NCBI GenBank assembly: GCA_903870275.1
Contig: CAIQCK010000103.1
Span: 3,819 to 67,818 of the forward strand
Length of the DNA: 64,000 bases
Direction of reading: 5' to 3'
DNA from: an uncultured bacterium
GTDB taxonomy: Bacteria > Verrucomicrobiota > Verrucomicrobiia > CAIQCK01
Positions 31,865 to 57,192 of the stretch are shown one piece after another (the first letter of the stretch is position 1; every line of letters begins with the position of its first letter). The notes below the pieces were generated by a model. That model saw nothing but the letters and a program-made list of their open reading frames with translations, was not told the DNA's origin and ran no database searches. The position numbers and the translations under genes were made by a program.

Positions 31865-31897
31865 GACGGCTGCAGACTTCACCGCTCGGATGGAAAA

Positions 31898-31972: not shown

Positions 31973-32105
31973 AACCGAGGGCCGAAATTTATAATGCAGC
32001 GCGGCGGCGGTTTCAACCGGTAATTTCAACAACGTTTGGAATGGGGGCACATCGCGCTTCACCGACCGCCCTGAAAAGGCGGCGGGCAGCTCATCGGTTT
32101 TCGAT

Positions 32106-36356: not shown

Positions 36357-36760
36357 CCCAGTTGCGCGACAGCTTCGGAAAAGTTGTCGAAGTTCACGGG
36401 CTTGACGATGTAGCTGTTCACGCCCAACTCGTAACTGCGTACGATGTCCTGCTCCTCGCGAGAGGAAGTGAGCACCACCACCGGGATGGTCTTCACGGAG
36501 TTGTCGGACTTGAGCTTGCGCAAGACATCCAGACCGTCCACCTTGGGCAGCTTCAGGTCCAACAGGATGATCTTGGGCCGGTTGCGCACCCGGCTGTTTC
36601 CGCCGCGAGGACCAAAGATAAACTCCAGCGCCTCTTCGCCGTCCTTGACCCAGACTAGTTTGTTGGTCAGGTTGCGTTTCTTGAGCGAGCGCATGGCCAG
36701 TTCGGCGTCGCGCGGATTGTCTTCAACCAACAGGATTTGAACTTCGCTATTTGTGCTCAT
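36284..36760 (-). CDS. stand-alone response regulator receiver (CheY-like)
   Basis: [13 protein letters not shown]...[13 protein letters not shown]...NSYIVKP; start ATG 36758-36760 overlaps the stop of the upstream kinase (ATGA). Confidence 0.85.
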
Positions 36761-39700
36761 GGTCGTCCCTTTCTTACCGGCAGTGAGAAACAAAACATCG
36801 CGCCCTCGTTGAGAGTTGCCTCCGCCCGGACGCGGCCGCCGTGGCGGTGGATCACGCGCTGGACAATGGCCAGCCCGACACCCGTGCCCTCGAACTCAGC
36901 GTCGCCGTGCAACCGCTGGAACACGCCGAAGAGTTTGCCCACATATTTCATGTCGAAGCCGACGCCGTTGTCCTTCACGTAGTAGAGATGCTCCGAGCCT
37001 TCCGCACGGCCTCCGATCTCAATGATCGCCGTCTCCTTTGGACGGGTGTATTTGATGGCGTTGGAAATGAGGTTTACCCACACCTGGCGGAGCATAGCCC
37101 AGTCGCCCTCCGCCGGCGGCAGCGGATGAAGTTGGAACTGGATCTGCCGGCCCGTCGCCCGGGCCGCGCACTCGTCAAAGACCGCCTGAGCCAACCCGCC
37201 CATGTCAATCTCCACCGCATCCAAGGACTGGCGCCCCACCCGCGAAAACGCCAGCAGATCGTCAATCAACTGGCCCATGCGCTTGGTTTCGTCGCAGATG
37301 ATGTCCACGGTCCGCCGGCCTTCCTCGCCGAGTTGCTTGACATGGTCTTCCACCAGGATGTTCGCGAAGCCGTTGATGGCCCGCAGCGGCGCGCGCAAGT
37401 CGTGCGACACCGAGTAGGAAAACGCCTCGAGTTCCTTGTTGGCCGCCTCCAGTTGGGCAGTGCGCTGGATAACGCGCGTCTCCAGTTCGGCGTTGAGGGT
37501 GTTGATTTCCTCCTCCGTCCGCTTGCGCTCGGTGATGTCGCGACCCACAACCACCGATCCGACAATCGTACCGTCTTTGTCGCGAATAGGGGCGAAACTG
37601 TAGCTGCCCACCCACGTTTCGCCCGTGTCTTTGCGTCGCAGCACATGCTCCACATTGGTGGCCGTTTCGCCCCGGAGCGCTCTTGGAACCGCCCACTGAT
37701 CCGACGGCACCGGTTCGCCATTGGTCATGAATACGTCCAGAATCGCGTTGTAATCAGCCAGGATTCGACTGCATTGATCCTTGCTCTTGAACTTATGGAA
37801 CGTCGCGAAGGCGTCGTTGAACTCGATAAACCGCCCCTTGGAATCGGAAATAAACACGGCATCGGTCATGCTGGACATAGCTGCCTGCATTTTCGCCCGG
37901 CTCGCCAGCATCAGTTCCTCGGCCTGTTTGCGCGCGCTGATGTCACGCACAATGACTTGCGCGCCGGGCTTTCCCTCAAAGGTGAACGGCATGGCCCCCG
38001 CCTCCACGTCCACCACGCTGCCATCCAGTCGCAGAAACTGCTCTTCGATGATGGGAAGCGGCTCCGGGTTTCTTTCCATGGCCGCCATGCGCTCCAGAAC
38101 CTCCTGCCGGAACCTTGGGTGGATGAAATCCAAAATGAACTTGCCAAGCAGTTGTTCCGGCCGATCCGCGCCGAAAAGTTTCAGGCCGGCCGGATTGATG
38201 TAAACAAACTTCCGGTCCGAGGAGATGAAAATGGTGTCCGGAGACGACTCCACCAGCCGGCGGTAACGCTCCTCGCTTTCCCGCAGACTCTGTTGGCTCA
38301 GCCGATAGGCGATGGCTACCGCCAGATTGTCGGCCAGCCGCTCCAGCAACGCGACGCGTTCCGGCGTGAAACGCCCTTTGCGCTTGTCGTTGATTTGCAA
38401 CAGTCCGCAGGTGGTCTGGCTCGTGCGCAACGCCACGAGGGCTACCGATTCATAGCCTTCGCCATTGCAACGATTGCGCGTGCGGCCCTGGCGGTCGGCT
38501 TCCGTGGTGCCGGCCAGGAGTTCGGTGGTGGAATTGGTCCAAAAACTGCCGCGCGCGGTGAAGAACGGCTTCGTGCGGTTGAACCGTCCGCAGATCACGT
38601 TGCCGCACATGCAATCCAACACGGGATGGCCGTCGCTGTCCTGCAACGGCCGGCCCTCCGCGTCGTGCAGGCACAGTTTGTCTTCCGCGCGGACAAATTC
38701 CGCCGGAAACCCGCGTGTCTCAAAATACGGATAGTCGCCGTCCTCGCGCAGCCGGATGCCCACGGCATCGCAGTCGAGCCACTCCTTCAGCAACAGCGTC
38801 GAGTCCCGCAACAACTCGCGCAGGTTGCTGGCGGCGTTGAACACCCTGAGCAAATGCACCGTGATCTCGCGATCTCCTTCCAATCGCTTGCGTTCTGTGA
38901 TCACGTCGAACACGGCCACGAAGTGTTCCTTGGCGGGGCTATACACCGCGATTTCGAACCAGTCCTGCAGGCCCTCCACATAAACCTCGAACCGCTCCGG
39001 CACGCCGGTCGCCGCCACACGACCGTAGGTTTCAAGCAACTTTGGGTCGGCCTCGCGAATGCCGGGGATGATTTCGGTGATTTTCCGTCCGACGACATTC
39101 TTCAAGCCGGTTAGTTTTTCAAAAGCGTCGTTGACAGCCAGATAGACGAAGTCCTGCGGCCGGCCTTCCTCGTAAATCATCCGGCAATAGGCGAAACCGT
39201 TGAGCATGTTCTCGAACAAGAAGCGGTATTTCTCCGCGCTTTGCCGCGCCAGCTCCTGCGCCTCCTTGCGCTGGGTGATATCGCGGATGATGGCCAGCCC
39301 GCAGCGGACGCCGCCGACCTCCACAAACCGGTCGCTGCTCTCCACCGGGAACGTCGTGCCGTCCTTGCGCCGGTGGACGGTTTCAAACATGGCGGTGCTG
39401 TCGCGTTCCAGCCGCCAGACTTGTTGCGCGGCATCCTCGTGAGCCTCTGGCGCGCGCAAGTCAGTTAGCCGCATCCGCAGCAGTTCGGCCCGCGAATAAC
39501 CGTAGCTCTCCACGGCACGGTCGTTGGCTTCGAGGATCTTCCACTCCTTGTCGGTCAGCAGGATGATGTCGTTGGCGTTTTTCATCAGGTGCTCGATGCG
39601 CTGGGCCATCGCCACCCGCTCCTGCTCGACCCACAACTGGCGTCGCAACAAATTCACATCGTGCCGCCGCCAGAGCATCGCCACGCTGAGGCAGACGACG

Positions 39701-41385
39701 ACGGCCAGCAATCCCATCCCGCCCCAAACGGTTTGGGCCTGCCGCCGCAACTCGGCATAAATTTCGTCCCGATCCACCTTCGCGATCATGAACCAAGGCG
39801 TATCGGGAACGGCGCGGATGACGGCCAGCACCGGCACGCCGCGATAGTCCGCGCCCTCCACGCGGCCGGTCTCGCCCCGCGCCGCCATCGCCGCCGGCAA
39901 ATCTTTCTTGCCGATGGGCATTCGCAACGCGAGGGCAGTGTTTGTGCGATGGCGCAGTTCGCTCAGAAACAGCACGTCCCCGCCTTCGCGCCGCACCAGC
40001 AGCGTCTCTCCCGTCCGACTCGGCGTCGGCCACTCTCGCAACAGCGGATAGAGAAACCGCTCCGGGTCCACCTCCATGTCAATAGCGCCGATGGCTGGGC
40101 CGCCGTTCGCCGCGAGAATTGGCACCGCGAGGTCGAGATGGATATCTCCGTTGAACCGGCTGCGGTGCAGGTCGGACATGACAACCTCGCTCGAGCGCAT
40201 GGCTTGCTGCGCGTAGCTCACGCCGATGGGGCCAACACCGGTTCTCTCCGAGGGAGAAACCAGAAGCACCCGGCCCGTCGCGTCCGTCAGCGCCACGCAC
40301 AAAGCCTGGTTGTGTTCCCTCAAGGCGTCGAGCCATTGCGTCAGCCGTTCGGGCGAGATGCTGTTGGTCGAATCCTTGAGAAAGTGATTCATCGCCTCGA
40401 TCATGAAGGGATTCAGCAGCCAGGAGCGGGCGTCGCCGAGGCGTTCGGCGCGCCAGTCCACGATCTGCCGCACCTTCAAGTCCGCAATGGCGGTCACGTC
40501 GCCCATCGCGCTCTTGCGCGCCAGGGTGTCCAGATGATTGAGGAAGAAGAAACCGGCGGCCGCTGTCGCCGCGACAACAGACATCAATGCCGCTAGCAGC
40601 GTCAGGCCGAAACTCCGCCGTGACGGCAACGCTGACGCGGCCTGGCCGAACACCATTTGCAACGGCCATCGGTCCAGGCCCGCGGCAAACAAGAGGCCCG
40701 CGCCCAGCAACGTCAACGCAACGGCCGAGGCCGGCGCCATGGGAATCCAGTCGCTTTCGTGAAGGATGGACACGCCCATCGCGTAGCCGAGAATCGCCGA
40801 AAGGCCCAGCAACGTCACCATCAACGCGAATCCGGCGGCCAGTTGTCGAAGCTCCCGCCACCGGCCTATCGGCGGCAGTTGCGTCAGCAACGCCAGCGCC
40901 GCCACCAACAATCCCCCCGCGCTCATCACGGATATCCGACCCACCGGCACGCCGCCGACCTTGGCATGAACGTCCGCCAGCCAGCGTTCGAGGCTGGGGA
41001 TGGCGCCGCTCTCTTTCGTCAACGCCAGCAGACAGAACGCGACCACAGCCAACGCCGCCAGATAAGCCGCTGCTATCGGAACCCAACGCGACGGCCAGCG
41101 GTGGCGCAGGAACAACGCGCCGCTGAGCAGGACTGTCAAGCACGCCGTCAACGGCGCCATCGGCACATGCTCGTCGCCGAATGCGCCCCACTGCCAGCGG
41201 CCACTCCACCATGAGACCATCGCCAGCGCCGCGATGCCCGCCGCGCCAAACGCGCCCCACGCCACCGCGCGGCGCTGAATGATCTGCTGTTTGGAATCCG
41301 CGTTCACGCTCGTTGGCCGTAGTAGCAGTTCGTGGGCATCCCTGGACCGCGAGCGGTCTTCCACCAGGATATCATGGCAGTCCAC
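36757..41385 (-). CDS. giant membrane sensor histidine kinase (multi-TM N-terminus, periplasmic sensor, multiple PAS/GAF, HisKA, HATPase)
   Basis: 1542 aa. About 10 TM segments in the first about 330 aa. Repeated PAS-like modules, H-box [20 protein letters not shown], HATPase G-boxes (DNGVGFD...GTGVGLAIV). Confidence 0.85.
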
Positions 41386-41706: not shown

Positions 41707-42381
41707 CTACACGGCGGCACTGGGCGGGGTCTGCCCGGTCAACTGGTGACGGATGGCATAGTGGATCAGGTCTGTTGTTGTTCGTAGATCCATCTTCTTC
41801 AACAACCGCGCACGGTAGGTGCTGACCGTCTTCTCACTCAAGCCCAGTTCCGCCGCGATGGTTTTGCCGGAACCGCCGGCCACGATGCGGTGCAACACTT
41901 CGAATTCGCGGTTGGAGAGATTCTCGTGGGGCAACAGCGTGCGCGCGCCCAAACTGCTCGCCAGCCGTTCGGCGAACGAGGAACTGACGTAGGTGCCACC
42001 GGCCAGAATCCTCCGCACCGCGTCGGCAAGTTCCTCCGGCGCGCGCTCCTTGGTCAAATACCCCGCCGCGTGAAACTTCAACGAGCGCATGGCGAATTGG
42101 TCTTCGGGGTGCACGCTGAAAACCAACACCGGCAACTCCGGGCGTCTTTGTTTGACCTCGCGCAGCACGCTCAAGCCGTCACGATCCGGCAGCGAGATAT
42201 CCAGAATCAGCAAGTCCCACCGTTCCCTGCCGAGTTGCCGCAGCGTCCCGGCGGCGTCCGCCGCCTCGCCAAAGACCGCGCCCCGAAACTCTTCCTTCAG
42301 AATCTGTTTGATGCCAAGCCGCGTGGTGGCGTGGTCGTCGGTAATCAGGATGCGGAGCGGTTTGCGGGCAGGTTTTTTCAT
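41707..42381 (-). CDS. NarL/FixJ-family response regulator (REC + LuxR-type HTH)
   Basis: RILITDDH...LLILDISLPDRDG...SVHPE, and C-terminal LSNREFEVLHRIVAGGSGKTIAAELGLSEKTVSTYRARLLKKM. Start ATG 42379-42381 overlaps the kinase stop (ATGA). Confidence 0.9.
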   Translation of the reverse strand: MKKPARKPLRILITDDHATTRLGIKQILKEEFRGAVFGEAADAAGTLRQLGRERWDLLILDISLPDRDGLSVLREVKQRRPELPVLVFSVHPEDQFAMRSLKFHAAGYLTKERAPEELADAVRRILAGGTYVSSSFAERLASSLGARTLLPHENLSNREFEVLHRIVAGGSGKTIAAELGLSEKTVSTYRARLLKKMDLRTTTDLIHYAIRHQLTGQTPPSAAV

Positions 42382-43649
42382 GAATGCTTCAAGGGAATCG
42401 CAACCCGGACGGTGGTGCCTTCGCCGGGCGCGCCGTGAATGATCACCTCGCCCCCAAACTCGCGCGCCCGCTCCCGCATGCCCAGCAGGCCCACGGCGCC
42501 GGCGTCGGCCATCTCCCGTGACGAGATGCCGCGGCCGTTGTCCGACACTTCCATCACCGCCCGACCGGCTACGGCCCGCAGCCGCGTGCGAACGCGCGTA
42601 GCTCCCGCATGGCGCGCGACGTTTGCCAGAATCTCCTGGAAGATGCGGAACATCGCCGTGGACCGGCCCGTGTCGAGCACCATTCCCTCCGCCGGCAAGT
42701 CCAACTCGCACTCGATGCCGCTACGCTCTTCAAACTGTTTCGCCCCCCACTCCATCGCCGCCACAAAACCCGACGTGTCCAGCACGGCGGGCCGCAACTC
42801 GGTGGAAATCCGCCGCGCCGTGTTGAGATCGCTTTCGACGCGCTTCATCATCGTTGCAATCCGCCGGCGCACGCCGGACTGGCCCGATTGCTTTTTCTCA
42901 TCCAACCGCCGGTCCAGCCATGCAAGGTCGAGTTTCAAATCCGTAAATGCATGGCCCATTTCGTCGTGAATTTCGCGGGCGATCCGGGCGCGCTCTTCCT
43001 CGCGAACGCTTCGCAGCCGGGCCGCCAGCGTCCGCAACTGTTCCCGCGAGGTCAGCAACCGTTGTTCGACCTGTTTGCGCTCGGTGATGTCGCGAATCGC
43101 GGCGACATGAATGCCGCGCCCCCGGCTTGTGAAATAGCTGCCCGCGATTTCCACCGGGAACACCGTGCCGTCCTTCTTGCGGTGCCAGCGGAGCGGAACA
43201 CTGGTTTCGCGCGCGGCGATGGCTTGCCCGGTTTTTTCCGGTTCCGCGGACATATCGGTCGGTTTCAACTTCAGAAATTCCTCACGACTGTAGCCGTAGA
43301 GCCGGGTCGCGGCGGCGTTGGCGTCCAAAACACGGCCCGTCTCGCCGTCAATCATGAGAATCGCATCGGACTCGATTTCGAACAGCCGGCGATGCCACTC
43401 TTCGGACTCGGCCAGTGCCTCGCCGTCCGGCTTGCGCCCGGCGATTTCGCGCTCGTCCGCCACCCATTTCTCCCGCTGCCGGCCCAATTCCACCGCCACC
43501 GCGTCCAATTCTCTCATCGCCTCGATCAAGTGCCGCTGCGTCGCGGTCTCTGCCGGTTGTTCATCCGGCGCGGCGTCCCACCTTTCCCGTAAAGCCGCCA
43601 GATGCCGCCGGGCTGCCTCGATGCGTTGGTTGATCAGTTTGTCACTCAC
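42378..43649 (-). CDS. PAS-containing sensor histidine kinase (NarX/LiaS-type; HisKA_3 + HATPase)
   Basis: PAS (ILMIDGETGRVLDANAAATRLYGYSREEF), HisKA_3 H-box EEERARIAREIHDEMGH, HATPase (SDNGRGI...GLLGMRERA...GEGTTVRVAIP). Confidence 0.85.
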   Translation of the reverse strand: MSDKLINQRIEAARRHLAALRERWDAAPDEQPAETATQRHLIEAMRELDAVAVELGRQREKWVADEREIAGRKPDGEALAESEEWHRRLFEIESDAILMIDGETGRVLDANAAATRLYGYSREEFLKLKPTDMSAEPEKTGQAIAARETSVPLRWHRKKDGTVFPVEIAGSYFTSRGRGIHVAAIRDITERKQVEQRLLTSREQLRTLAARLRSVREEERARIAREIHDEMGHAFTDLKLDLAWLDRRLDEKKQSGQSGVRRRIATMMKRVESDLNTARRISTELRPAVLDTSGFVAAMEWGAKQFEERSGIECELDLPAEGMVLDTGRSTAMFRIFQEILANVARHAGATRVRTRLRAVAGRAVMEVSDNGRGISSREMADAGAVGLLGMRERAREFGGEVIIHGAPGEGTTVRVAIPLKHS

Positions 43650-43958
43650 ATGTTCAGTTTTGTCAGACGCAGGCCGTCGCCTGCTATCGCCGTTTATACT
43701 GTGGCCGATAATTTGCTCCTTTTTCCAGTGTCAAATGCCCATGACCCTAAAAACTTTCCCCGGTATTTCCCGTTGTCAGCCTGTTGAAACGGCGTAGTCT
43801 GTCCGCCGGCATCGGACGGCGCAATTGGCGAGAGGAGCTTTTCTTCGTTTGAGCCGTCTAATGCCGTGGTGACCCACATGAACTTCAGACCTGGAAACCG
43901 AAGTTGCGCGGGCAAGGATGCCGGTGCCACGGTCAACTTCAGTTTTCGGGTCAAACCC

Positions 43959-46900
43959 ATGACGCCCATGAACATATACACTCAATTCCTTGCCGCGCTC
44001 GCGGCGATAACCCTCCTCTCTCCAACCGGCGTCGCACTCGCCGACAACGAAATCGGCTTCATCGAACGCTTCGCCCTCGCGCCCGACCGCGAAAAGGCGC
44101 TCAGCGAACTCGTGCCCGGCAGCGAGGATTTTTATTACTACCACGCGCTCCATGTCCAGAACGCGCGCGACACCGTCAAACTTGCCGACACGTTGACGCA
44201 GTGGAAAAAGCGGTTCCCCAACTCCGAGCGGCGGTGCGTGATCGAGAACCGCGAGGCGCTCATCGGCTACGAAACCAATCCGCAAACAACGCTGGCGTAT
44301 CTGCGCGAAAAGCTGAGCCTGCATTTCAACCACGTGCAGGAGGCCCGCGACAAAAAACCCGATCTGCCCTCCTCGCTCGACCCGAAACGCATCGCCCGCG
44401 GGGTCTTCGAGAAAGATTCGCTCACCCACGACGGCGGCATGCAAAGCTTCTCCCAAACCGCGCTGGAGGATCTGGTAAAACGCCAAGCGCCGCTCGATGA
44501 ACAGCGCCGCCGCGCTCTGCTGGCGAAGATTCACCGTCCCGATGTGTCACATCTGGTCGAGGTGATCGTCGCCGATTTGAAATGCAAGGAGTCGCGCGGC
44601 TTCGGCGAGTTTGCGATTCACCGCGCATTGTTACCCGACCAACTCGACGCGCTTGTCCGGGCACTGCCGGCGCTGGCGGTGAACGAGGCGTTCGTGTTAA
44701 CGCGACTACGCAAGCTCGCGCCGTCCGCCGATGCCGACATCGAGTTCGGCACCGCCGAGCGCGAGGCGTGGCTGGAGCGCGTGTGGAACTACACGAAGAC
44801 GCTGCCGCCGGCCTTCAACGCGCTGAAAGCTTGCGTGCTTTATCAGCGGCTCGACCACGACCGCAAAAAGAGCGTCTATAACCACGAGCGGTTTCTCGAA
44901 TACGTCAAGCTGCCGCGCAGTTTCTTCTACGTGAACCCGCTCTGGCTCCGGAGCCGGACGCAACTTGGCGAGCCGGTCGCCGATCTCAACATTAGCTTTG
45001 CTGACCCGCTGCCCGGCGTGCGGCCCGTCGGCATGGACGAACCGCTGGTGCGCGATTATTTCGTGCATCTCTTTGCCGCCAACGGCAAGGCCGACAGCGA
45101 TGCCCATGCGCTGCTGTCGCCGTGGACCGATTACATTCGCGAGTCGTGGCTCAAACCGATCCTCGCCGAGGCGATGATCCTCCACGGCATCGGCGACCCG
45201 GAACGCTGGGCGTCGCTGCTCGCGCCCTCGGAATTTCAGCGGTTGAAGGAACGCGTGGACATCGAGTTTCCGCCGACCAACACCCCGTTCACCACGCCCG
45301 GCGCCGACGTGGCGATGGATGTGATCCTCAAAAACACGCCGAAGCTGCTCGTCCGAATATACGAAGTCAACGCCCTGAACTTTTTCCTCGTGCAACACCG
45401 CCAGCTCAACACCGACCTCAACCTCGACGGCCTCGTCGCCAACAGCGAACGCACGCAGACGTTCGACGCCGGCCCATTCAAGCGCGTGCGGCAGACCTTC
45501 AAGTTTCCCGAACTCCGGGGCCGGCGCGGCGCGTGGATCGTGGAGTTCATCGGCGGCGGGCGCAGCAGCCGGGCGCTGGTGCGCGTCGGCCAGTGGCAGT
45601 TACTCCAGCAAACCGGCCCCGGCGGCGATCTGCTGACCGTGCTCGACGAACAAGGCGAGCCGGTGAAGGACGCCGTCGCGTGGCTCGACGGACGGAAGTT
45701 CACGCGCGACGAAAAGCTCGGCCGCATCAACGTCCCGTTCACCCAACAGCCCGGCCGCGCCAACATCGTCATCTCGGACACGGCCGGCACGTTCGCGACG
45801 CTGACGCAGTTCGAGCATCACGCCGAGGACTACCGGCTCGACGCGCAATTTCACGTTGAGCGCGAACAACTACTGGCCCGGCGCGAAGCGACTCTCGCGG
45901 TGCGCACAACGCTCATGCTCGGCGAATCACACCTCGACCCGGCGATCCTCCGCGAGCCGAAGCTCGCCATCACCACGACCACGCTCGACGGCATCTCCAC
46001 AACGCGCGAGGTCCAGGACGTGAAACTGACCGCCGCGCACGAGTTAACGCATACGCTGACGGTGCCTGAGCGGCTGGCGCAACTCCAAGTGACACTCAGC
46101 GGCAAGGTGGACGTGCTCAGCGAGGGCGGCGCCAAGCGCGACTTGAGCGCGTCGCACACGTGGAACATCAACGGCATGGACAAGACCGACGCGATTAGCG
46201 ACGGGCATTTGTCAAAGTTCGGCGGCGATTACGTCTTCGAGTTGCTCGGCAAGAACGGCGAACCGCTCGCCGACCAGCAGGTAGTGTTTGCGTTCACGCA
46301 TCGTGATTTCAGCCGGCCGCAGCACATCGCGCTCAAGACCAATGAGCGCGGTCGCATCGCGCTCGGCCCGCTCACTGGTTTGCGCAGCGCGCGCGCCAAG
46401 TGTCCGAACAATCGCGAGAGCACGTGGGCGCTCGCGGACTTCGAGCGGACGTGGCCCGGCGTGATTCACGCCCGCGCCGGCGAGGCTATCCGGGTTCCGA
46501 TGCCGCTGCACTCGCGAGAGTTCTCGCTGCTCGAAACCCGCGCCGGAACCTTTGTCGCCGACTGCACCGCGCAGATGAAACCCGATGGCGAATTCCTGGT
46601 CATCCCGGCACTGGCCGCCGGCGATTACTCGTTGCGCTTCCGCAACGACAATCGCGAACTCACGGTCAAAATCACCGACGGCAAACCCAGCGCCGGGTGG
46701 TTCCTCGGCAAAAACCGACAACTTCAGGCGAAGAACACCGCGCCGCTCCATATCACCGGCGTGAGCGTGGAAAAAGATGTCATCGAAATCAAACTGGCGA
46801 ACGCCTCGCCGTTCGCGCGCGTCCATGTCGCCGCGTCGCGGTTCGAGCCAGGGCGCGGATTGTTTGGGGGACTAGCCGGCTTTGCGCGATTTGGCGCGGC

Positions 46901-49900
46901 TGAGAGTGCGCCCGCGAAGCAGCCAAACCTTTACGCCGGCGGCCGCGAGATTGGCGACGAGTATCGCTACATCCTCGAACGCCGCAACGGCCGCGTGTTT
47001 CCGGGTAACATGCTCACGCGCCCCGGCCTGTTGCTCAATCCGTGGGAGACGCGAGACACCGGTCTCGCGGAACTCGAACAAAGGGCCGGCGAAATGGCCG
47101 GGGCCACAGCGGGTAATCGCGCCATGTCAAGATACGGCGGCGGCATGGTCGGCACTCCCAACGTGATGGCCGCAGCCGGCGCAGTTGCGGACAGCGATCT
47201 CGATTTCCTCGCTGCGAGCGAGCCGGTGATTTTCAATCTGTTGCCGGACAAGAACGGCGTTGTGCGCGTCGCGCGCGAGGCGCTCGCCGACCGCCAACAC
47301 GTGCAGGTCTATGCGGAGGATCTCGACGACGCCGTCTGGCGCTCGTTTGCGCTGCCGGAGGCGGGGACCAAGTTCACGGACTTGCGGCTCGCGCACAATC
47401 TCGACCCGGCCAAACCGTTCGCGCAGAAAAAGGAAATTGCCGTGCTCAAGCCGGGCGGGGCATTTGCGCTGACCGACACGCTCACCGGCGAACTCGAAAC
47501 CTATGACACGCTCGGCAGCGTGTACGCGCTTTTCACGACGCTCAGCGGCGACGGCAATCTCGCAAAATTCGCCTGGCTGTTGCAATGGCCAAAGCTCGGC
47601 GACGAAGAACGGCACGCGAAATACGGCGAGTTCGCCTGCCACGAGTTGAACTTTTTCCTGTGGCGCAAAGACGCGGCGTTTTTCGAGAAGACGGTGCGGC
47701 CGTATCTGGCCAACAAGAAGGACAAGACGTTCATGGATGACTTCCTGCTCGGTAACGATCTGGCGCGCTATCTCGAACCGTGGGCCTACGCGCGGCTCAA
47801 CGTCGTCGAGCGCGCGTTGCTGGCCCAGCGCGCGAAAGGCGAAGCCGCCAATGCCGCGCGGCATCTGCGCGAGTTGTGGGAGATGGTGCCGCCCAATCCC
47901 GACGAGCAAGACCGCTTGTTCGAGACCGCGTTGCGCGGCCGGGCGCTGGAATCCTTGATCAAACTCGGGGCGGGGACTTTGATCCTCAATGGTTCCAACT
48001 CCTACGCAGGCGGCGTCGTCATCAATGCCGGCAACCTGTCAGTGACGGTGGCAGGAGGAGGTGCACTCGCAACCGCGCCTCTTCCGCCACCCGGCGCCGC
48101 CGCGCCGGCCACTCCCGCTCTCGTTGTGACGAAAGATGCGCGTCACCTCTCTTTTCGTGCCGATCAATTGGAGACGCTGGCGGAGAAGGCCCCAGCAAAA
48201 CAATCGCCCAAAAACCTCAGGGTACCGATGGAAGTTCGGGCTATGGCAGAACAACGCCACGCCATCTTCAAAAAAGCCGGTCTTGCCATGGATGGGGAAG
48301 AAGGTGTTTTGAGAGACAAAAGCGAATCCGGTCGTTGGGGCTACTTCGGCGCAGACGCCACCAAGCACGCCCGCGGCGAGGGGCGCGCCTATTACCGCCA
48401 GCTCGGCGCGACCAAGGAATGGGCGGAGAATAATTACTACAACCTCCGCATCGCGCAGCAAAATGACAGTCTCGTCGGCATCAACGCCTTCTGGCGCGAC
48501 TACGCCCAGTGGGTTGCCGACGGCGCGAAAGCCCCGTTCGTCTCCGCCAACGTCGCGGAAGCGCACAATGACTTCGCCGAGATGATGCTCGCGCTGGCCG
48601 TGCTCGATCTGCCGTTCGAGGCGCCGAAGCACGCCTCCCAAGTCACGAATCACGAATTACGATTCACAGCCGCCAGCCCGGTCATCATCTACCACAAGGA
48701 AATCAAACCGACCGCGCCCGCCGCCGCGCCGCAGGCGGAACTGCTGGTCTCGCAAAGTTTCTTCCGCCAGGGCGACCGTTACCGGCAGGAAGGCAACGAG
48801 AAGTTCGAGAAATACGTGACGGAGGAATTTCTCGCCGGCGCCGTCTATGGCGCCAACATCGTCGTCACCAACCCGACCAGCGCACCGGTGAAGGCCGAGG
48901 TGCTCCTGCAAATCCCGCAGGGCGCGTTGCCGGCGCTCGGCAGCAAGAACACCGATTCGCGCCGGCTGCGGTTGGAGCCTTACACGACCCAGACCTTCGA
49001 GTATTGTTTTTACTTCCCCGCCACGCCGGCCAAGCCCAATGAAACATTCGCCCACTACCCCGTCAACATCGCCGTCGCCGGCCACTGTGCGGCGGCGGCC
49101 CGGCCGTTTGCGTTCAACGTCGTCGTCAAGCTCTCGCAGATGGACAGGGCATCGTGGGATTATCTCTCGCAATACGGCAGCGAGGCGGAGGTCTTCGCGT
49201 TCCTCAACCAGAACAACGTCGAGCGGCTCGACTTCGAGCGCGTGGCGTGGCGCTGCCGGCAGAGCGTGGATTTCTTCCGGAAACTGACGGGGTTCATGCA
49301 GGTCCACCACGTCTGGAACGAAACGGTTTACAGTTACGCGGTCGTTCACAATGACACGCCGGCGTTGCGCGAGTGGCTGCGGCACAAGGACGAGTTCCTG
49401 GCGAACTGCGGCCCGTTCCTCGCCTGCAAACTGGTCGTGCTCGATCCGATCGAGCGGCGCGCTTACGAGCATCTGGAATACTCGCCGCTGGTCAACCAGC
49501 GCGCGCACCGGCTCGGCAACGAGTGGCGCATCGCCAATCCCGCCGTGCGCGACCAATACCTGCGGCTGCTCGACATCCTCGCGCACAAGTCCGCGCTCGA
49601 TGCGATGGACAGCATGAGCGTGACTTATTATTTGTTCCTGCAAGACCGTGTCGAGGAGGCGCTGGCGCGATTCAAGACGATTGACCCGAAACAACTGCCG
49701 GCGCGCGTGCAGCACGATTACTTCCGCTGCTATGCCGGTTTCTACGAAAGCAACCTGGCCGACGCGCGCGCCATCGCGACCGGCTACCGCGACTTCGCCG
49801 TGCCGCGCTGGCAGAAACTTTTCGCCGAGGTCGCCCGGCAGCTCGATGAGATCGAGGACAAAGCCGTCGTCGCGTCGAAGAAATCCGCCGATGACAAACC

Positions 49901-50591
49901 CGACCGCGAGAAACAACAAAGCGAACTGGCGGCGACCGAGCCGGTTTTCGATTTCAAGGTGGAGAACAAAACCATCGCGTTGACCTGGAAACATCTCGGC
50001 GAGGTGACGATCAACTACTACCTGCTGGACCCGGAGTTTTCGTTCAGCAGCAATCCGTTTGTGAGCCAGGACGCCAGCCGGTTCAGCATCATCAAACCCA
50101 ACAAGACCGCCGCGCAACCGCTGCCGAAGGAGAAGGACGCGCTCGACGTGCCGCTGCCCGGCGAGTTTGCGAAGGCCAACGTGCTGGTGGAGATCGGCGG
50201 CGCCGGCCAGCGCAAAGCGCAGGCGTATCACGCCAACACGTTGAAACTGGCGCTGGCCGAAAACTACGGCCGGCTCGAAGCGCGCGACAGCGTCACCGGC
50301 AAGGCGGTGGCGAAGGCTTACGTGAAGGTGTATGCGCGCCTGCGCAACGGCACGGTGCGGTTCTTCAAGGACGGCTACACCGACCTGCGCGGCCGTTTCG
50401 ATTACGCGAGCCTCAACAGCGCCGGCTCCGAAATGGCGCCGGGGATGCCTGGCGAGACAGCGCCCGCGAACGGTCTCGACTACCAGATGCTCAAGCCCGC
50501 CGAGTTGGGCGAAGTGGAGAAGCTGGCGATTCTCATCCTCAGCGACACCAACGGCGCCGCCACCCGCGAGGTCAATCCGCCCCGCCAGTAG
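43959..50591 (+). CDS. giant secreted hypothetical protein (about 2210 aa) containing one autotransporter-associated beta-strand (PATR-like) motif
   Basis: Start at ATG 43959 gives a signal peptide (MTPMNIYTQFLAALAAITLLSPTGVALA). Long continuous ORF with good coding character. PATR-like motif LIKLGAGTLILNGSNSYAGGVVINAGNLSV at about 47950-48040. No other recognisable domain from sequence alone. Confidence 0.8.
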   Translation: MTPMNIYTQFLAALAAITLLSPTGVALADNEIGFIERFALAPDREKALSELVPGSEDFYYYHALHVQNARDTVKLADTLTQWKKRFPNSERRCVIENREALIGYETNPQTTLAYLREKLSLHFNHVQEARDKKPDLPSSLDPKRIARGVFEKDSLTHDGGMQSFSQTALEDLVKRQAPLDEQRRRALLAKIHRPDVSHLVEVIVADLKCKESRGFGEFAIHRALLPDQLDALVRALPALAVNEAFVLTRLRKLAPSADADIEFGTAEREAWLERVWNYTKTLPPAFNALKACVLYQRLDHDRKKSVYNHERFLEYVKLPRSFFYVNPLWLRSRTQLGEPVADLNISFADPLPGVRPVGMDEPLVRDYFVHLFAANGKADSDAHALLSPWTDYIRESWLKPILAEAMILHGIGDPERWASLLAPSEFQRLKERVDIEFPPTNTPFTTPGADVAMDVILKNTPKLLVRIYEVNALNFFLVQHRQLNTDLNLDGLVANSERTQTFDAGPFKRVRQTFKFPELRGRRGAWIVEFIGGGRSSRALVRVGQWQLLQQTGPGGDLLTVLDEQGEPVKDAVAWLDGRKFTRDEKLGRINVPFTQQPGRANIVISDTAGTFATLTQFEHHAEDYRLDAQFHVEREQLLARREATLAVRTTLMLGESHLDPAILREPKLAITTTTLDGISTTREVQDVKLTAAHELTHTLTVPERLAQLQVTLSGKVDVLSEGGAKRDLSASHTWNINGMDKTDAISDGHLSKFGGDYVFELLGKNGEPLADQQVVFAFTHRDFSRPQHIALKTNERGRIALGPLTGLRSARAKCPNNRESTWALADFERTWPGVIHARAGEAIRVPMPLHSREFSLLETRAGTFVADCTAQMKPDGEFLVIPALAAGDYSLRFRNDNRELTVKITDGKPSAGWFLGKNRQLQAKNTAPLHITGVSVEKDVIEIKLANASPFARVHVAASRFEPGRGLFGGLAGFARFGAAESAPAKQPNLYAGGREIGDEYRYILERRNGRVFPGNMLTRPGLLLNPWETRDTGLAELEQRAGEMAGATAGNRAMSRYGGGMVGTPNVMAAAGAVADSDLDFLAASEPVIFNLLPDKNGVVRVAREALADRQHVQVYAEDLDDAVWRSFALPEAGTKFTDLRLAHNLDPAKPFAQKKEIAVLKPGGAFALTDTLTGELETYDTLGSVYALFTTLSGDGNLAKFAWLLQWPKLGDEERHAKYGEFACHELNFFLWRKDAAFFEKTVRPYLANKKDKTFMDDFLLGNDLARYLEPWAYARLNVVERALLAQRAKGEAANAARHLRELWEMVPPNPDEQDRLFETALRGRALESLIKLGAGTLILNGSNSYAGGVVINAGNLSVTVAGGGALATAPLPPPGAAAPATPALVVTKDARHLSFRADQLETLAEKAPAKQSPKNLRVPMEVRAMAEQRHAIFKKAGLAMDGEEGVLRDKSESGRWGYFGADATKHARGEGRAYYRQLGATKEWAENNYYNLRIAQQNDSLVGINAFWRDYAQWVADGAKAPFVSANVAEAHNDFAEMMLALAVLDLPFEAPKHASQVTNHELRFTAASPVIIYHKEIKPTAPAAAPQAELLVSQSFFRQGDRYRQEGNEKFEKYVTEEFLAGAVYGANIVVTNPTSAPVKAEVLLQIPQGALPALGSKNTDSRRLRLEPYTTQTFEYCFYFPATPAKPNETFAHYPVNIAVAGHCAAAARPFAFNVVVKLSQMDRASWDYLSQYGSEAEVFAFLNQNNVERLDFERVAWRCRQSVDFFRKLTGFMQVHHVWNETVYSYAVVHNDTPALREWLRHKDEFLANCGPFLACKLVVLDPIERRAYEHLEYSPLVNQRAHRLGNEWRIANPAVRDQYLRLLDILAHKSALDAMDSMSVTYYLFLQDRVEEALARFKTIDPKQLPARVQHDYFRCYAGFYESNLADARAIATGYRDFAVPRWQKLFAEVARQLDEIEDKAVVASKKSADDKPDREKQQSELAATEPVFDFKVENKTIALTWKHLGEVTINYYLLDPEFSFSSNPFVSQDASRFSIIKPNKTAAQPLPKEKDALDVPLPGEFAKANVLVEIGGAGQRKAQAYHANTLKLALAENYGRLEARDSVTGKAVAKAYVKVYARLRNGTVRFFKDGYTDLRGRFDYASLNSAGSEMAPGMPGETAPANGLDYQMLKPAELGEVEKLAILILSDTNGAATREVNPPRQ

Positions 50592-50747: not shown

Positions 50748-53222
50748 TCACTTCAACGACCAGGCTTCGAGTCGTCTGGCACCGGTATAGAGAATCTGCC
50801 CGTTCGGCGCAAACGCCAGGGCGATCCCCGGCCCGACCGCATTCACCCGGTTGAACTGAATCTCCACCAGCAACTCGCCGGTACCGATGCGAAACACTCC
50901 AATCCGGCCTTTGTCCGTATTCAAAGGCGCCCCGACGATGGCCAGCCAGCGGCCATCGGGTGAGAAGACCAGCGAGCACGCCCGGTCCGCCACCGGGTAG
51001 GCAAAGCCTTGCTGGAGCCTGCCCGTCGCCACATCCCACAGCCGAGTTCCGTCCCCTGCCGTGGCCGTGGCAAGGCAGCGGCCATCGGACGAAAAAGCCA
51101 GTCCGCTTACTTGGCCGGCATGTTCGTCAAACTGCCGCAATAGCTTGCCCGTGGCGGTGTCAAACAGTCTTATCGTTTTCGTTGAGACCGAGCCGCCGCC
51201 CGCGGCCAGCAGACTGCCGTCAGGCGACACCGCGACGACGCTCTTCACGCCGCTGTCGCCCTTGTGCTGCCACAAAGCGCGCCCGCTCCCGATATCAAAA
51301 CAGGCGATGTCGTTGAAACCGGCATAACCCAGGCGGAGCGCGGCGCGATCAAACGCAAAAGGACCAAGGCCAATGCCGCTGCTGGGCCTGCCTTTCAGTT
51401 CGATCTCCGAAACCAACTTCCGCTCGGCGACATCCCACTCACTTAACCACCCCTGTTGGTGAACTAGCACCACCTTATGTCCGGTATCGTGGAACGCCGT
51501 CCCCAGACACCAAGACCTGGGCTCGCGCGGAACCTGCCACACAGAGTTCCCCGATTTCGCCTCCCAGATTTCGACCGTTCCGTTGGTGAGCGTTGCCAAC
51601 AACTGGCCGTCGGGCGAGAGAATGAGATGCGACGGGTTGACGAAGAGCGGTGTGGCATAGACAGGTTCGGTGAGGATTTGCCTGGGCAGAGGCGACGGCT
51701 TGGGCGCTGGCTGTTCGGCCAGGTCATATTCATTGCGGAGCAAGTTCCGCCATTGGGCCAGCACCGTCTTCTGGTCGGCTGAACTCCGAGGCTGGGCGTC
51801 GTAGATACTCCGCACGCTGACGAGCGGTTCAGGCCGGCCGGCGTTCGAAATCTCCAGCATCTCTTTGAGTGTGTGCCAGTCGGTCAACTCGAACCGGGGA
51901 TGCTTCATTAACGCGATGAGCAATTCCCTCGTGTCGGGGCGCGCAGCCACCCGCACTTCCTGCAAGAATATTTCCGGCTGGTGGAAAGGATCTCTTGCCG
52001 TGACGAGTGCCTTATAGAACCAATCGGTGAGAAAATCCTTCTCCGCGGCGCCACAAACCCGCCACAAACCGCCGGTCAAATAGCCTGCGGCGCCGACATA
52101 ATCCCTTGTTTCGTGTTTCAGCGCCGTCCGCAGGATGTCGCCGGCGCGGGCGGGTTGCAGCGCCGCCGCGCCGATGGACCATGCCGGGTTGACGCCGTGA
52201 TAATCACGTTCCGCATCCTCGCAGGTGAGCAGCGCGCCGGCATCCTCCGGTCGCAGCAATTGGGCGGCATGACGAAGGATGAAATTGGCGATTCTCACAA
52301 AGTTAGGGTTCTTTTTGTTTTCCATCCGCAGGTCTGGATCGTCCGTCACCGGCTTGCGTTGGAGAAATCGCAACAGCGCTTCCGGCCCCAGTTCGCAGGC
52401 CGTGGCCAGCAGTTCCCGGTCTGACGCCAAACAATGTTCCGCCATGTATCCCTCGTTCCAACCTTCGGGGCATAAAACAAAAAGCCGTGTCCATGCGCGC
52501 TCCCTTGGAGGCAGTGCGTCCATCTCCGTCAAGACCCGCTTGATGTCCGATTGGTATTCCGGCTGAATCGGACTTGTTTCGCGCGTGGCGCGGTTCATTT
52601 TGACTGCGAACCAACCCGCCGAATACTGGCGGCCTTCATATTTCTTCCAGTATTTCTTGAAGATTTCCGCCGTCACCCGCGTCTCCCGTTCATCCGAAAC
52701 TCCCCAAAACTTGAGCATGGCTTGAGCCACGTGATCCACCGTCTGCGGACTCTCTAACTCGTCCACGGGACGCGGGCCTCCCATGCTGCTCATGAGTGCG
52801 CTGTTCATGAATTCGTGGAGGTCCGGGAACGTGGGAGCCTCATCGTCCACGAGCGATGCGATCAGCGGCAAATCCCGTCCATCTTCGCGCTCAAAAAGCG
52901 CGCCCAACGCCAGCGTTCGCATCTTCGGGTTGGGATGTTCGAGCAGTGCCGCCAAACTCTCGCGGTTGCCACTCAACGCGCGAAGCTCGCGCGCCAGACG
53001 ATCCTGCTGCGCCGCCAGCCGGTCATTATCCCACAGCCGCAACTGCCGGTTATAAATGAGGGTGGTTCGCGCGAAGTGACTGTAGGTCTGCGCCATCCGT
53101 TCCAACTGGATCTGAACCTGATTGCCGGTGGCGTCGGCCGCTGACAAGGCCGTAGCCGCCAGAAGCCATGCTGCAAACGTGCCGATGCGAGAGAGGGACC
53201 GGTGTTTCAGTTTGCGGAACAT
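50748..53222 (-). CDS. secreted protein with N-terminal alpha-helical domain and C-terminal WD40/beta-propeller repeats
   Basis: Signal peptide (IGTFAAWLLAATALSAADA). C-terminal about 300 aa with WD-like repeats (LSPDGQLLATL..GTVEIWE; AVSPDGSLLAAGG..TIRLFD; AFSSDGRCLATAT..GTRLWD; VFSPDGRWLAIVG). Confidence 0.8.
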   Translation of the reverse strand: MFRKLKHRSLSRIGTFAAWLLAATALSAADATGNQVQIQLERMAQTYSHFARTTLIYNRQLRLWDNDRLAAQQDRLARELRALSGNRESLAALLEHPNPKMRTLALGALFEREDGRDLPLIASLVDDEAPTFPDLHEFMNSALMSSMGGPRPVDELESPQTVDHVAQAMLKFWGVSDERETRVTAEIFKKYWKKYEGRQYSAGWFAVKMNRATRETSPIQPEYQSDIKRVLTEMDALPPRERAWTRLFVLCPEGWNEGYMAEHCLASDRELLATACELGPEALLRFLQRKPVTDDPDLRMENKKNPNFVRIANFILRHAAQLLRPEDAGALLTCEDAERDYHGVNPAWSIGAAALQPARAGDILRTALKHETRDYVGAAGYLTGGLWRVCGAAEKDFLTDWFYKALVTARDPFHQPEIFLQEVRVAARPDTRELLIALMKHPRFELTDWHTLKEMLEISNAGRPEPLVSVRSIYDAQPRSSADQKTVLAQWRNLLRNEYDLAEQPAPKPSPLPRQILTEPVYATPLFVNPSHLILSPDGQLLATLTNGTVEIWEAKSGNSVWQVPREPRSWCLGTAFHDTGHKVVLVHQQGWLSEWDVAERKLVSEIELKGRPSSGIGLGPFAFDRAALRLGYAGFNDIACFDIGSGRALWQHKGDSGVKSVVAVSPDGSLLAAGGGSVSTKTIRLFDTATGKLLRQFDEHAGQVSGLAFSSDGRCLATATAGDGTRLWDVATGRLQQGFAYPVADRACSLVFSPDGRWLAIVGAPLNTDKGRIGVFRIGTGELLVEIQFNRVNAVGPGIALAFAPNGQILYTGARRLEAWSLK

Positions 53223-53230
53223 GGGATGCC

Positions 53231-55657: not shown

Positions 55658-55719
55658 GGGTCACCTCGATACGAGCATCACCGCTGCGGTTATCAATGCG
55701 AGTCGGTTCATAAGTGCCT

Positions 55720-57192
55720 TTATGGCGTCGGTTCGGGCGGATCTGGTTTCTTGGTCTTCGGCGCCGGCGACACGGGGGCGGACCCGACAGCAGGCTTGCG
55801 CAGTTTGTTCAGCGCCTCGGCGGCAAAGTGGCGCACGTCCCGATCTGTATCAATCAAGCAGGCGGTCAGTGGGTTGATGGCTCGCGTGTCCCCCAGCCTG
55901 CCCAGCGCCCAAGCGGCTTGGCAGCGGACCTGCTGATTCTTATCGTTCAAGCAAGCGATCAGCAGATCAACGGCTCGCTTGTCACCCAGCTTGCCCAACG
56001 CCCAAGCAGCTAGCCAGCGGACCTGCTGATTCTGGTCTTTCAAGCAAATGATCAGCGGCTCGACGGCTCGCTTGTCCCCCAGCTTGCCTAGGGACTCGGC
56101 AGAGTTACTGCGCACCGACCACGCTTCATCTTTCAGGCAGGCGATCAACGGTTCAACGGCCCGCACATCCCCCAAATCGCCCAACGCCGCGGCGGCAGGC
56201 CAAGACAGACGATTGTCCCGGTCTTGGTCCGTCAAGCAGGCGATCAGCGGCTCCAAAGCCCGCTTGTCCCCCACGTGGCCCAGCGCATGGGCGGCTATTC
56301 TGCGCACGACCCAATCCTGGTCTTTCAAGCAGGCGATCAACGGCTCGACGGCCCGTTCGTTCCCCGGTTTGCCCAGCGCCATGGCGGCATGCCAGCGCAT
56401 GACCTTGTCCTCATCCTTCAAACAGGCGATCAGATGCTCAACGGCTCGCACATCCTCCAGTTTGCCCAGGACCGAGATGGCGCCCCAGCGCATGTTCTCA
56501 TCTGGACCTTTCGAGCAGACAATGAGCGGCTCGACGACTGGCTTGCCCAGCTTGCCCAGCGCCTTGGCGGCGCCTGATCTCACACTCCGATCTTGATCTT
56601 TCAAACAGCCGATCAGCGGCTCGACGGCTGGTTTGCCCAACTTGCCCAGCGCCTCGGCGGTATGGTAGACTACATACAGTTCCTGATTCTTCATCAACTT
56701 CAAGCAGGCGATCAGCGGCTCGACGGCCCGCGCGTCTCCGAGTTTGCCCAGTGCCTCGGCGGCGACCCACCGCAGATTCTGATTCTGATCCTTCAAGCAA
56801 GCGATCAGAGGCTCAACGGCTTGTGCGTCTCCGAGTTTGCCCAACGCCTCGCCGGCGGCCCTGAACACCCTGTATTCTTGATCCTTCAGGCAGGCGATCA
56901 ACGGCTCAACTGCCCGCTTGTCCCCCAGTTTGCCCAGCGCCACAGCCGCACCCGCGCGCACACGCAAATCCGAATCCTTCAAGCAGGCGATCAACGGCCC
57001 GATGGCCCGCTTGTCGCCCAGGTCGCCCAGCGCATAAACCGCACTCTCGCGTCCAAAAAAGCCAAGCGGATCATTCAACTCGTTGATTCGTTCTTGAACG
57101 GTGTCGGTCGTTCCCACCGCCCCGGCCGCCGCAAGACTCATGCAAAGCGTTATTGAACGAATCAACGCCACGACAAAAGGCTTCACGTTCAT
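55720..57192 (-). CDS. HEAT-repeat (PBS-lyase type) protein, about 14 tandem repeats
   Basis: Signal peptide; repeat unit about 31 aa LGDKRAVEPLIACLKDQ...VR..AA.AL repeated throughout; 490 aa. Confidence 0.85.
   Translation of the reverse strand: MNVKPFVVALIRSITLCMSLAAAGAVGTTDTVQERINELNDPLGFFGRESAVYALGDLGDKRAIGPLIACLKDSDLRVRAGAAVALGKLGDKRAVEPLIACLKDQEYRVFRAAGEALGKLGDAQAVEPLIACLKDQNQNLRWVAAEALGKLGDARAVEPLIACLKLMKNQELYVVYHTAEALGKLGKPAVEPLIGCLKDQDRSVRSGAAKALGKLGKPVVEPLIVCSKGPDENMRWGAISVLGKLEDVRAVEHLIACLKDEDKVMRWHAAMALGKPGNERAVEPLIACLKDQDWVVRRIAAHALGHVGDKRALEPLIACLTDQDRDNRLSWPAAAALGDLGDVRAVEPLIACLKDEAWSVRSNSAESLGKLGDKRAVEPLIICLKDQNQQVRWLAAWALGKLGDKRAVDLLIACLNDKNQQVRCQAAWALGRLGDTRAINPLTACLIDTDRDVRHFAAEALNKLRKPAVGSAPVSPAPKTKKPDPPEPTP

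Follow-up and report, generated by a model that had tools for sequence, protein, structure and literature searches.

The window analyzed here is a 64,000-nt stretch of DNA from an uncultured bacterium of the Verrucomicrobiota (GTDB lineage CAIQCK01; assembly GCA_903870275.1, contig CAIQCK010000103.1). It contains a gene for a giant protein with a signal peptide, transcribed divergently from the genes of a histidine kinase and a response regulator. An original prediction, made from the DNA letters alone, regarded the giant product as a possible adhesin or surface protein under the control of the adjacent two-component system (TCS). Our analysis points to a different arrangement: on balance, the locus probably consists of two independent units lying side by side, namely, an ordinary operon encoding the kinase/regulator pair and a stand-alone gene for a periplasmic, macroglobulin-like binding protein. 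The features concerned are as follows.

41707..42381, minus strand: response regulator of the NarL/FixJ type, 224 aa, with REC and GerE helix-turn-helix domains (Pfam Response_reg, 6e-24; GerE, 8e-18)
42378..43649, minus strand: histidine kinase, PAS-HisKA_3-HATPase_c, 423 aa from GTG 43649 (Pfam PAS_9, HisKA_3 and HATPase_c)
43650..43967, no strand assigned: divergent intergenic region and 5' leader of the giant gene
43803..43869, plus strand: leader stem-loop, three stacked helices with 22 pairs, right arm GCCGTCTAATGCC (RNAalifold, 7 sequences)
43888..43952, plus strand: palindrome hairpin within a 66-nt lineage-specific insertion (inverted repeat, RNA fold and alignment)
43968..50591, plus strand: giant gene, 2207 aa from ATG 43968 (ORF listing and full-length homologues)
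43968..44042, plus strand: Sec type I signal peptide, MNIYTQFLAALAAITLLSPTGVALA followed by DNEIGF..., the sole hydrophobic segment of the protein

Integrity of the giant gene and its export signal

The giant open reading frame (ORF) runs uninterrupted from 43866 to 50591 on the plus strand. Independent samples from ENA, JGI and Logan contain at least 10 contigs with a gene for an identical product of 2237 aa, which, together with the abundant full-length homologues, indicates that the ORF is not a sequencing artefact. The original prediction had counted on an intact reading frame with a signal peptide, and it was right on both counts: no frameshift interrupts the gene. There are three candidate start codons, ATG 43959 (2210 aa, chosen in the original prediction), ATG 43968 (2207 aa) and ATG 43878 (2237 aa, used by some pipelines), and the choice between 43878 and 43968 appears ambiguous at the sequence level. 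All homologues begin at the residue that corresponds to ATG 43968, and M4 of the 2210-aa version is invariant in the alignment; the n-region starting there (MNIYTQ) has zero positive charge, whereas that of all relatives begins with MKTHAR.... ATG 43878 would supply the charge by adding 30 residues that include Arg and Lys, and the in-frame 66-nt insertion described below would then become coding.

The signal peptide follows a family-wide pattern, AxA and then (E)NEIGFIE, without a lipobox, and the conserved C-terminus of the family is without a sorting motif. Tandem repeats were not found in the giant gene at the DNA level, nor was a membrane anchor, a C-terminal barrel or a recognizable catalytic domain found in its product. 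The sole Pfam/NCBIfam match is one PATR, the autotransporter-associated repeat (TIGR02601), at aa 1333–1362, in agreement with the earlier statement that the protein has no other recognizable domain.

A protein family shared by Planctomycetota and Verrucomicrobiota

More than 1,000 matches to the giant protein were found among 5.8 billion proteins. The best 120 are about 2,160–2,420 aa long, 60–100% identical and mostly full length, and they come from Verrucomicrobiota, e.g. Roseimicrobium, Prosthecobacter, Chthoniobacterales and Limisphaerales. Relatives occur in at least 469 species-representative genomes, a count that is a lower bound, the search patterns being clade-biased. Members from Verrucomicrobiota are 60–90% identical, and full-length homologues with 44–46% identity are present in Planctomycetota (Aeoliella, Pirellulaceae, Thermoguttaceae and Phycisphaerae). 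With residues 430–1330 as the query, an exhaustive HMMER search recovered 2,693 representatives (at 50% identity) with E ≤ 1e-3, including 1,121 with E ≤ 1e-30; the best 150 matches are mostly 2,050–2,300 aa long, and the shorter ones look like fragments. Since the match begins at about residue 415 in full-length members, the N-terminal domain is a fixed component of these proteins. The chain is evenly conserved, apart from three stretches: the signal peptide, a loop (about aa 1030–1077) and a linker (about aa 1321–1470). Among the matches listed, the family is seen only in phyla of the Planctomycetota–Verrucomicrobiota–Chlamydiota (PVC) group. These sequence comparisons place the giant protein in a very large, uniform and so far uncharacterized family of Planctomycetota and Verrucomicrobiota.

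With thousands of sequence clusters, about 2,200 residues and 44% identity between phyla, this family is among the larger ones that have no domain model, name or study. Literature searches turned up no paper on it and no relevant description of a giant or macroglobulin-like protein from PVC bacteria. Database names of its members are 'hypothetical protein', 'autotransporter-associated beta strand repeat-containing protein' and, in Aeoliella, 'MG2 domain protein'. The last of these, a UniRef name, could not be reproduced with current Pfam. The second is misleading, because it rests on a dispensable 30-residue motif in the linker: PATR is missing from most members and differs in position in others; in the window protein it lies where the linker starts, and in another member (P0083) near the linker's C-terminal end. 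The motif thus appears, from its distribution and position, to have been gained independently within a low-complexity linker of 118–327 aa. PF28559, which is listed for some members, was rejected as a model for the family: it amounts to a faint TPR_SusR match. In five metagenome-assembled genomes (MAGs), two copies of the giant gene with 63–68% mutual identity are found on separate contigs (L011/L027, L006/L046, L050/L078, L012/L020 and L005/L070); an ancient duplication in Chthoniobacterales and Prosthecobacter would explain this, as would mixed bins.

These properties bear on the proposal that the product is an adhesin or surface protein switched transcriptionally by the divergent NarL-type system through binding to the palindrome, which we consider very unlikely. 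On the protein side, it can point to the single PATR, a motif frequent in autotransporter passengers; the motif is, however, dispensable and variable in position, and the protein has a uniform length and lacks tandem repeats, a barrel translocator and an anchor. A giant adhesin is also difficult to reconcile with 44–90% full-length identity across two phyla, a profile more like that of a conserved family of the housekeeping type, and this part of the original prediction is not supported. Two particular kinds were ruled out: an autotransporter/PATR adhesin, as there is one dispensable repeat and no match to an autotransporter barrel domain, and a repeat-type adhesin (Bap, RTX or Ig-repeat), on the grounds of repeats, length and identity just given.

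Predicted architecture of the giant protein

Two AlphaFold2 (AF2) models were built from a 37-sequence alignment covering both phyla, one for the N-terminal half (aa 26–1200; pLDDT 81.8, pTM 0.74) and one for the C-terminal half (aa 1080–2210; pLDDT 71.0, pTM 0.48). The predicted domain layout, in the numbering of the 2210-aa version, is given below; MG denotes macroglobulin-like domains and all elements are on the plus strand.

44058..45251, plus strand: N-terminal all-helical domain of about 400 aa (aa ~30–430; AF2 model mfce0455ea3a2, helices 9–406, pLDDT mostly 85–96)
45258..46949, plus strand: about six MG-like beta-sandwich domains (aa 434–997; AF2 strands at model residues 409–972, Foldseek)
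46989..47189, plus strand: short conserved helix, then a disordered, variable Ala/Gly-rich loop (aa 1011–1077; pLDDT < 50)
47298..47504, plus strand: seventh beta-sandwich, MG7-like (aa 1114–1182; AF2 C-half strands 35–103)
47511..47969, plus strand: helical module 1 with conserved YACHELNFF and KKDKTFMD (aa 1185–1337; AF2 helices 106–258, pLDDT 80–93)
47928..48377, plus strand: low-complexity variable linker, with PATR at 47955–48044 (aa ~1325–1475; pLDDT 23–45, conservation 0.23–0.37)
48351..48602, plus strand: helical module 2 with the TKEWAENNYY motif (aa 1465–1548; AF2 helices 386–469, invariant residues)
48633..49115, plus strand: two beta-sandwich domains (aa 1559–1719; AF2 strands 480–640, pLDDT 80–93)
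49155..49937, plus strand: TPR-like helical repeat module (aa 1733–1993)
49944..50573, plus strand: two C-terminal beta-sandwiches with the invariant KDGYTDLRGRFDY and the conserved C-terminal REVNPP (aa 1996–2205)

A Foldseek search of the PDB with the N-terminal half gave 79 matches at E ≤ 1e-3. The top 49 are all members of the alpha-2-macroglobulin (A2M)/complement family (C3, C4, C5, A2M, A2ML1, CD109 and TEP1), with E = 1.5e-11 to 1e-7 and probability 1.0, and the alignments (620–900 columns) span the whole 630–650-residue beta chains of C3, C4 and C5, which correspond to MG1–MG6. The C-terminal half matches C3b and C5 alpha chains and E. coli A2M fragments with E = 2e-6 to 3e-4, mixed with enzymes of glycoside hydrolase family 2 (GH2). 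For the central part of the giant protein, the prediction is thus an array of MG-type sandwiches resembling the one in A2M/complement proteins. In the models, TPR-like helical modules stand where the CUB-TED unit would be. The Ala/Gly loop occupies the position of the bait region, between the sixth and seventh sandwiches, and is 47–74 aa long in 202 members (A 20%, G 15%); with pLDDT < 50 and the poorest conservation of any stretch outside the linker, its likeness to a bait region is positional only.

Relationship to alpha-2-macroglobulins and possible function

The giant protein would leave the cytoplasm via Sec and, once in the periplasm, bind other molecules without enzymatic activity, as a large protein of the macroglobulin kind. 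In the version that we favour it would be a non-covalent trap or shield, comparable to the thioester-less type II bacterial A2M. Such trapping of, or shielding from, proteases is proposed by analogy and is tentative. The CxEQ thioester motif is absent from the window protein, and C.EQ is found in only 3 of 361 members. The YACHEL segment was ruled out as a site of thioester chemistry, as Leu stands in place of Gln, and 47 of 280 members have Ser instead of the Cys. CxEQ is not obligatory for A2M membership, however, as type II bacterial A2M lacks it (PMC5764988), and MagD, a type II protein without a thioester, traps protease non-covalently (PMC5764988).

The hallmark of the A2M superfamily, consecutive MG sandwiches collinear with MG1–MG6 (plus MG7), is found in the giant protein at the fold level only, and several results weigh against a macroglobulin relationship. 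No Pfam/NCBIfam A2M domain was detected in the window protein or in 22 diverse members, one of which gave a sub-threshold bMG3 match (E = 0.009); Pfam searches with Aeoliella and Prosthecobacter-type members likewise yielded no usable identification. A family profile retrieved nothing among PDB sequences, and hhalign against E. coli YfhM returned a probability of 0.1%. TM-scores to the A2M/complement matches are low, about 0.1–0.16; rank 50 of the Foldseek list is a fibronectin-III array (IL-12 receptor, 1e-7), and GH2 enzymes score like C3b for the C-terminal half, so that part of the signal represents generic similarity between arrays of beta-sandwiches. The hallmarks of bacterial A2M loci are likewise missing: there is no lipobox across the family, and no pbpC or mag-operon partner at 84 loci. 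Furthermore, the strong cross-phylum conservation would be unusual for a protease bait protein and suits a structural partner of conserved envelope machinery at least equally well. Equivalents of the ANA, CUB, TED and C345C domains were not detected in the window protein. Membership in the A2M superfamily is accordingly not established. The segment-wise structure prediction advised in the original prediction did reveal an MG-like array at the fold level, but sequence-level support for A2M did not follow.

The same conservation, together with the TPR-like modules, is what would be expected if the giant protein were a structural or scaffolding part of the PVC envelope, in which TPR-like modules and sandwiches mediate protein–protein or protein–glycan contacts, proteases are not trapped and the likeness to A2M merely reflects a common domain type. 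We regard this as possible and about as likely as the trap. Three observations speak against a scaffold: no conserved gene partner points to a machine; the collinear match over the whole of MG1–MG6 is specific to A2M/TEP proteins among the top 49 matches; and some genomes have two copies, 63–68% identical, a less common finding for one essential scaffold protein.

A carbohydrate-active enzyme or glycan-binding protein, with a helical catalytic module flanked by sandwich accessories, a layout common among PVC bacteria that degrade polysaccharides, was considered as well and is extremely improbable. The GH matches have TM-scores of only ~0.08–0.11 and are explained by the sandwich arrays, none of the 22 members has a CAZy-type Pfam domain, neither a TIM barrel nor an alpha/alpha toroid is predicted, and a sulfatase gene lies within 10 kb of the giant gene at just 6 of 84 loci.

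To return to the macroglobulin-like binding protein, a more far-reaching version is possible, though short of probable: the family may represent a third class of macroglobulin-like proteins in bacteria, highly divergent, vertically inherited and near-universal in Planctomycetota–Verrucomicrobiota, in which an N-terminal helical domain and TPR-like modules accompany an MG ring and neither a thioester nor a TED is present. Such a class would have a conserved role in the PVC envelope, as a guard of the periplasm or a scaffold, rather than being a variable colonization factor, and in one genus its leader would carry an RNA stem-loop and an inserted hairpin. If the proteins are indeed macroglobulin-like and periplasmic, the A2M/complement architecture would reach a third bacterial class with a differing domain make-up, found in free-living PVC bacteria and not in host-associated Proteobacteria, which would bear on how the MG-ring architecture arose and on the protection or organization of the atypical PVC envelope. 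The main gain from the analysis is that a very large family without annotation has been recognized across PVC bacteria, its predicted architecture being partly macroglobulin-like, along with a structured leader in one clade.

The kinase/regulator pair and its genomic context

The pair was described in the original prediction as a PAS-HisKA_3 kinase translationally coupled to a LuxR-type regulator, and both the Pfam domains and the ATGA overlap between the kinase stop and the regulator start codon, read from the sequence, bear this out. A second gene caller places the kinase start at 43517 (379 aa). As is characteristic of NarL/FixJ systems, a HisKA_3 + HATPase_c kinase and a REC + GerE regulator are encoded together, with Pfam matches above the gathering scores. 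In NCBIfam both proteins fall near NarL, UhpA, GacA and MctR, the best matches of the regulator being UvrY/GacA, MctR and NarL; all equivalog scores are far under the family cut-offs, and the pair is therefore not orthologous to any named system. Judged by domain content and gene order, it is a regular NarL-family TCS forming a two-gene operon. No hydrophobic segment was found in the kinase (the top Kyte–Doolittle 19-mer scores 0.87), which makes it a soluble cytoplasmic sensor.

Directly downstream of the pair and on the same strand lies a large PAS-rich signalling cluster (33267–41385, minus), which includes two further kinases.

33267–36356, minus strand: hybrid kinase REC-PAS-HisKA, 1029 aa
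36757–41385, minus strand: PAS/GAF-HisKA kinase, 1542 aa

The cluster is syntenic in the relatives whose giant proteins are 90% (P0002) and 83% (P0003) identical to that of the window, where a 158-aa stand-alone REC gene lies in between. The pair is therefore better seen as the end operon of this same-strand signalling cluster.

Conservation of the arrangement was examined across relatives, as the original prediction had proposed. The pair and the whole PAS-rich cluster adjoin the giant gene in the two closest relatives, P0002 and P0003, but no relative at ≤74% identity retains this arrangement. The pair is not next to the giant gene in the 74% relative, in Roseimicrobium sp. ORNL1 or in a Verrucomicrobiaceae MAG. 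In tblastn searches with the window kinase and regulator, no such pair was found at 82 genome loci. It is also absent from the giant-gene surroundings in three Planctomycetota genomes, which have no gene in common there. In all, the adjacency is missing at more than 85 other loci. When flanking ORFs were clustered for 84 loci, no family occurred in more than 16 of them, and those loci reflect synteny inside one clade. As it has no conserved neighbour, the giant gene appears to be a stand-alone, monocistronic unit.

For an adhesin governed by the TCS, the divergent layout with its common region of 309 bp and the retention of the adjacency, including the signalling cluster, in the two closest relatives are favourable points. 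The loss of the adjacency elsewhere is not, and a soluble kinase with PAS as its only sensor would respond to a cytoplasmic signal and not to one from the envelope. Local control by the TCS thus keeps the support of two close relatives and loses that of the remaining loci. From these comparisons, the position of the pair beside the giant gene is a local and recent arrangement, and any regulatory coupling would be lineage-specific. The arrangement highlighted by the original prediction is largely ordinary: a routine TCS beside a large gene, the two showing no sign of being coupled outside the close relatives.

The leader of the giant gene

A simple scan of the intergenic region (43650..43967) found no sigma-70-like promoter, and Rfam gave no match at E ≤ 1. 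The region does contain the palindrome of the original prediction, which is real and longer than was noted (43888–43952 instead of 43894–43947). Its arms, 43888–43906 and 43934–43952, are 19 nt each and 84% complementary, and are separated by a 27-nt spacer. It occurs once in the window, with 0.03 chance matches expected. Folded as RNA, it has an energy of -39.5 kcal/mol (z = -3.56), and none of 200 shuffled sequences was equally stable.

The leader was aligned with those of seven loci at 72–74% protein identity (L003, L008, L033, L037, L059, L060 and L083, of which L059 and L083 appear to be one contig). A 66-nt insertion at about 43897–43962, in frame and equal to 22 codons, is present in the window and missing from the seven relatives. 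Upstream of it, a conserved block terminates with the invariant GCCGTCTAATGCC, some 100 nt ahead of the coding anchor; this motif has a fixed offset in the 72–74% relatives and is shifted in the window by exactly 66 nt, owing to the insertion. Judged from its translated N-terminus, the 90% relative (P0002) has the insertion as well. Four contigs (L085 and L087–L089) belong to the same species as the window, and L085, the one aligned, is identical upstream.

The conserved block corresponds to the leader stem-loop. Across the alignment, 88.9% of cells are paired, as against 36–64% in slid controls, and 8 pairs are changed on both sides. The covariation of 0.407 exceeds the control values (≤0.188). 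None of 500 shuffles attained the value observed. A covariance model detected the stem-loop only in the 8 loci of the clade with ≥72% identity, always just upstream of the giant gene; it matched nothing beyond that clade, and the stem-loop has no Rfam family. By comparative sequence analysis, it is possibly a clade-specific cis-regulatory RNA. Since the palindrome lies in an insertion missing from relatives that do have the stem-loop upstream, it would be a recent addition to an already structured leader. An 8-nt direct repeat, AACTTCAG, at 43881–43888 and 43935–43942 flanks most of the inserted segment. One hairpin arm resembles an inverted copy of pre-existing sequence, which suggests a local inverted duplication and not a mobile element; no further copy is present in the window.

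In favour of transcriptional switching by the NarL-type regulator, the palindrome has statistical support and is shared with the 90% relative, which carries the pair. Its position argues against an operator: it ends 15 nt ahead of ATG 43968, or falls inside the ORF if ATG 43878 is used. Moreover, 19-nt arms with a 27-nt spacing differ from the usual geometry of GerE/NarL-type operators. An RNA hairpin fits these dimensions better than an operator of the GerE type does, and the palindrome of the original prediction is thus retained as a structure, but as a lineage-specific insertion.

Could the locus instead represent a lineage-specific regulatory capture, in which a conserved gene of the housekeeping type acquired RNA-level control (of translation or stability) through the hairpin insertion, transcriptional control through the TCS, or both? 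We consider this unlikely, although several observations fit. The insertion and the pair occur together in the window, the conspecific contigs and P0002, and neither is found in the 72–74% relatives; the hairpin is very stable; and a Ser-to-Gly replacement in P0002 (AGT to GGT, inferred from the protein) would convert a C.A mismatch into a C-G pair. In addition, the conserved stem-loop immediately upstream shows selection acting on the leader within this clade. On the other hand, the co-occurrence comes from a single lineage and so amounts to one evolutionary event, a metagenome scan with the leader motif gave no new locus, and the in-frame insertion may merely lengthen the n-region of the signal peptide if ATG 43878 is the start.

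Other genes in the window

Beyond the giant gene, the interval 50748–57192 (minus) encodes two adjoining WD40 beta-propeller proteins (824 and 808 aa) and then a 490-aa HEAT-repeat protein. The first WD40 gene is kept beside the giant gene only in conspecific contigs. These genes lie between the giant gene and a second giant ORF, 57370–63951 (minus, 2193 aa), whose product has an N-terminal Ser/Thr kinase domain and an FGE-sulfatase domain (formylglycine-generating-enzyme-like, aa 1417–1625) and is otherwise mostly without a domain match. On the other side of the signalling cluster, an ankyrin-repeat protein of 801 aa is encoded at 27200–29605 (plus). The ankyrin, WD40, HEAT and Ser/Thr kinase genes are the eukaryote-like repeat-protein content typical of PVC genomes. 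A tRNA-Val (CAC) gene at 31898–31972 (minus) lies inside the longest ORF call at 30716–32248, and the glycosyltransferase family 9 gene called there must therefore begin downstream of the tRNA.

Comparison with known systems

The window pair has the HisKA_3 + HATPase_c and REC + GerE domains and the overlapping genes in common with NarXL, UhpBA, LiaSR, MctSR and GacA/UvrY. It differs from this group in its kinase, which is soluble, has a single PAS domain and lacks a transmembrane sensor.

With PATR autotransporters and Verrucomicrobial beta strand repeat proteins, the giant protein shares one PATR/TIGR02601 repeat. Here, however, the single repeat lies in a disordered linker, and there is neither a beta-helix passenger nor a translocator barrel.

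The resemblance to eukaryotic thioester-containing proteins (TEPs; C3/C4/C5, A2M, A2ML1, CD109 and TEP1) is that the N-terminal half aligns across almost the entire MG1–MG6 beta chain. The identity is 9–13% and the helical module is of another type; the TM-scores of 0.1–0.16 indicate that the relative orientations of the domains differ.

Among bacterial proteins, YfhM of E. coli, a type I A2M (ECAM; PDB 4zjg, 4zjh, 4ziu and 4rtd), is encoded by a gene that adjoins pbpC. YfhM is a lipoprotein with a CxEQ thioester and a TED. By contrast, the window protein has a type I signal peptide, no thioester and no pbpC neighbour, with the hhalign probability of 0.1% given above.

A further bacterial counterpart is the type II A2M, represented by MagD of Pseudomonas aeruginosa and YfaS of E. 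coli. The window protein has no detectable sequence homology to MagD/YfaS, an extra N-terminal helical domain of 400 aa, TPR-like modules in place of CUB-TED and a length of ~2,200 aa. Its gene stands without the six-gene mag/yfaSTAQP operon or conserved neighbours and is limited to PVC bacteria as far as seen. What the window protein and type II A2M have in common is that both are large Sec-exported periplasmic proteins, by prediction in the present case, with an MG-type array at the fold level, no CxEQ thioester and a flexible, variable loop at the position of the bait region.

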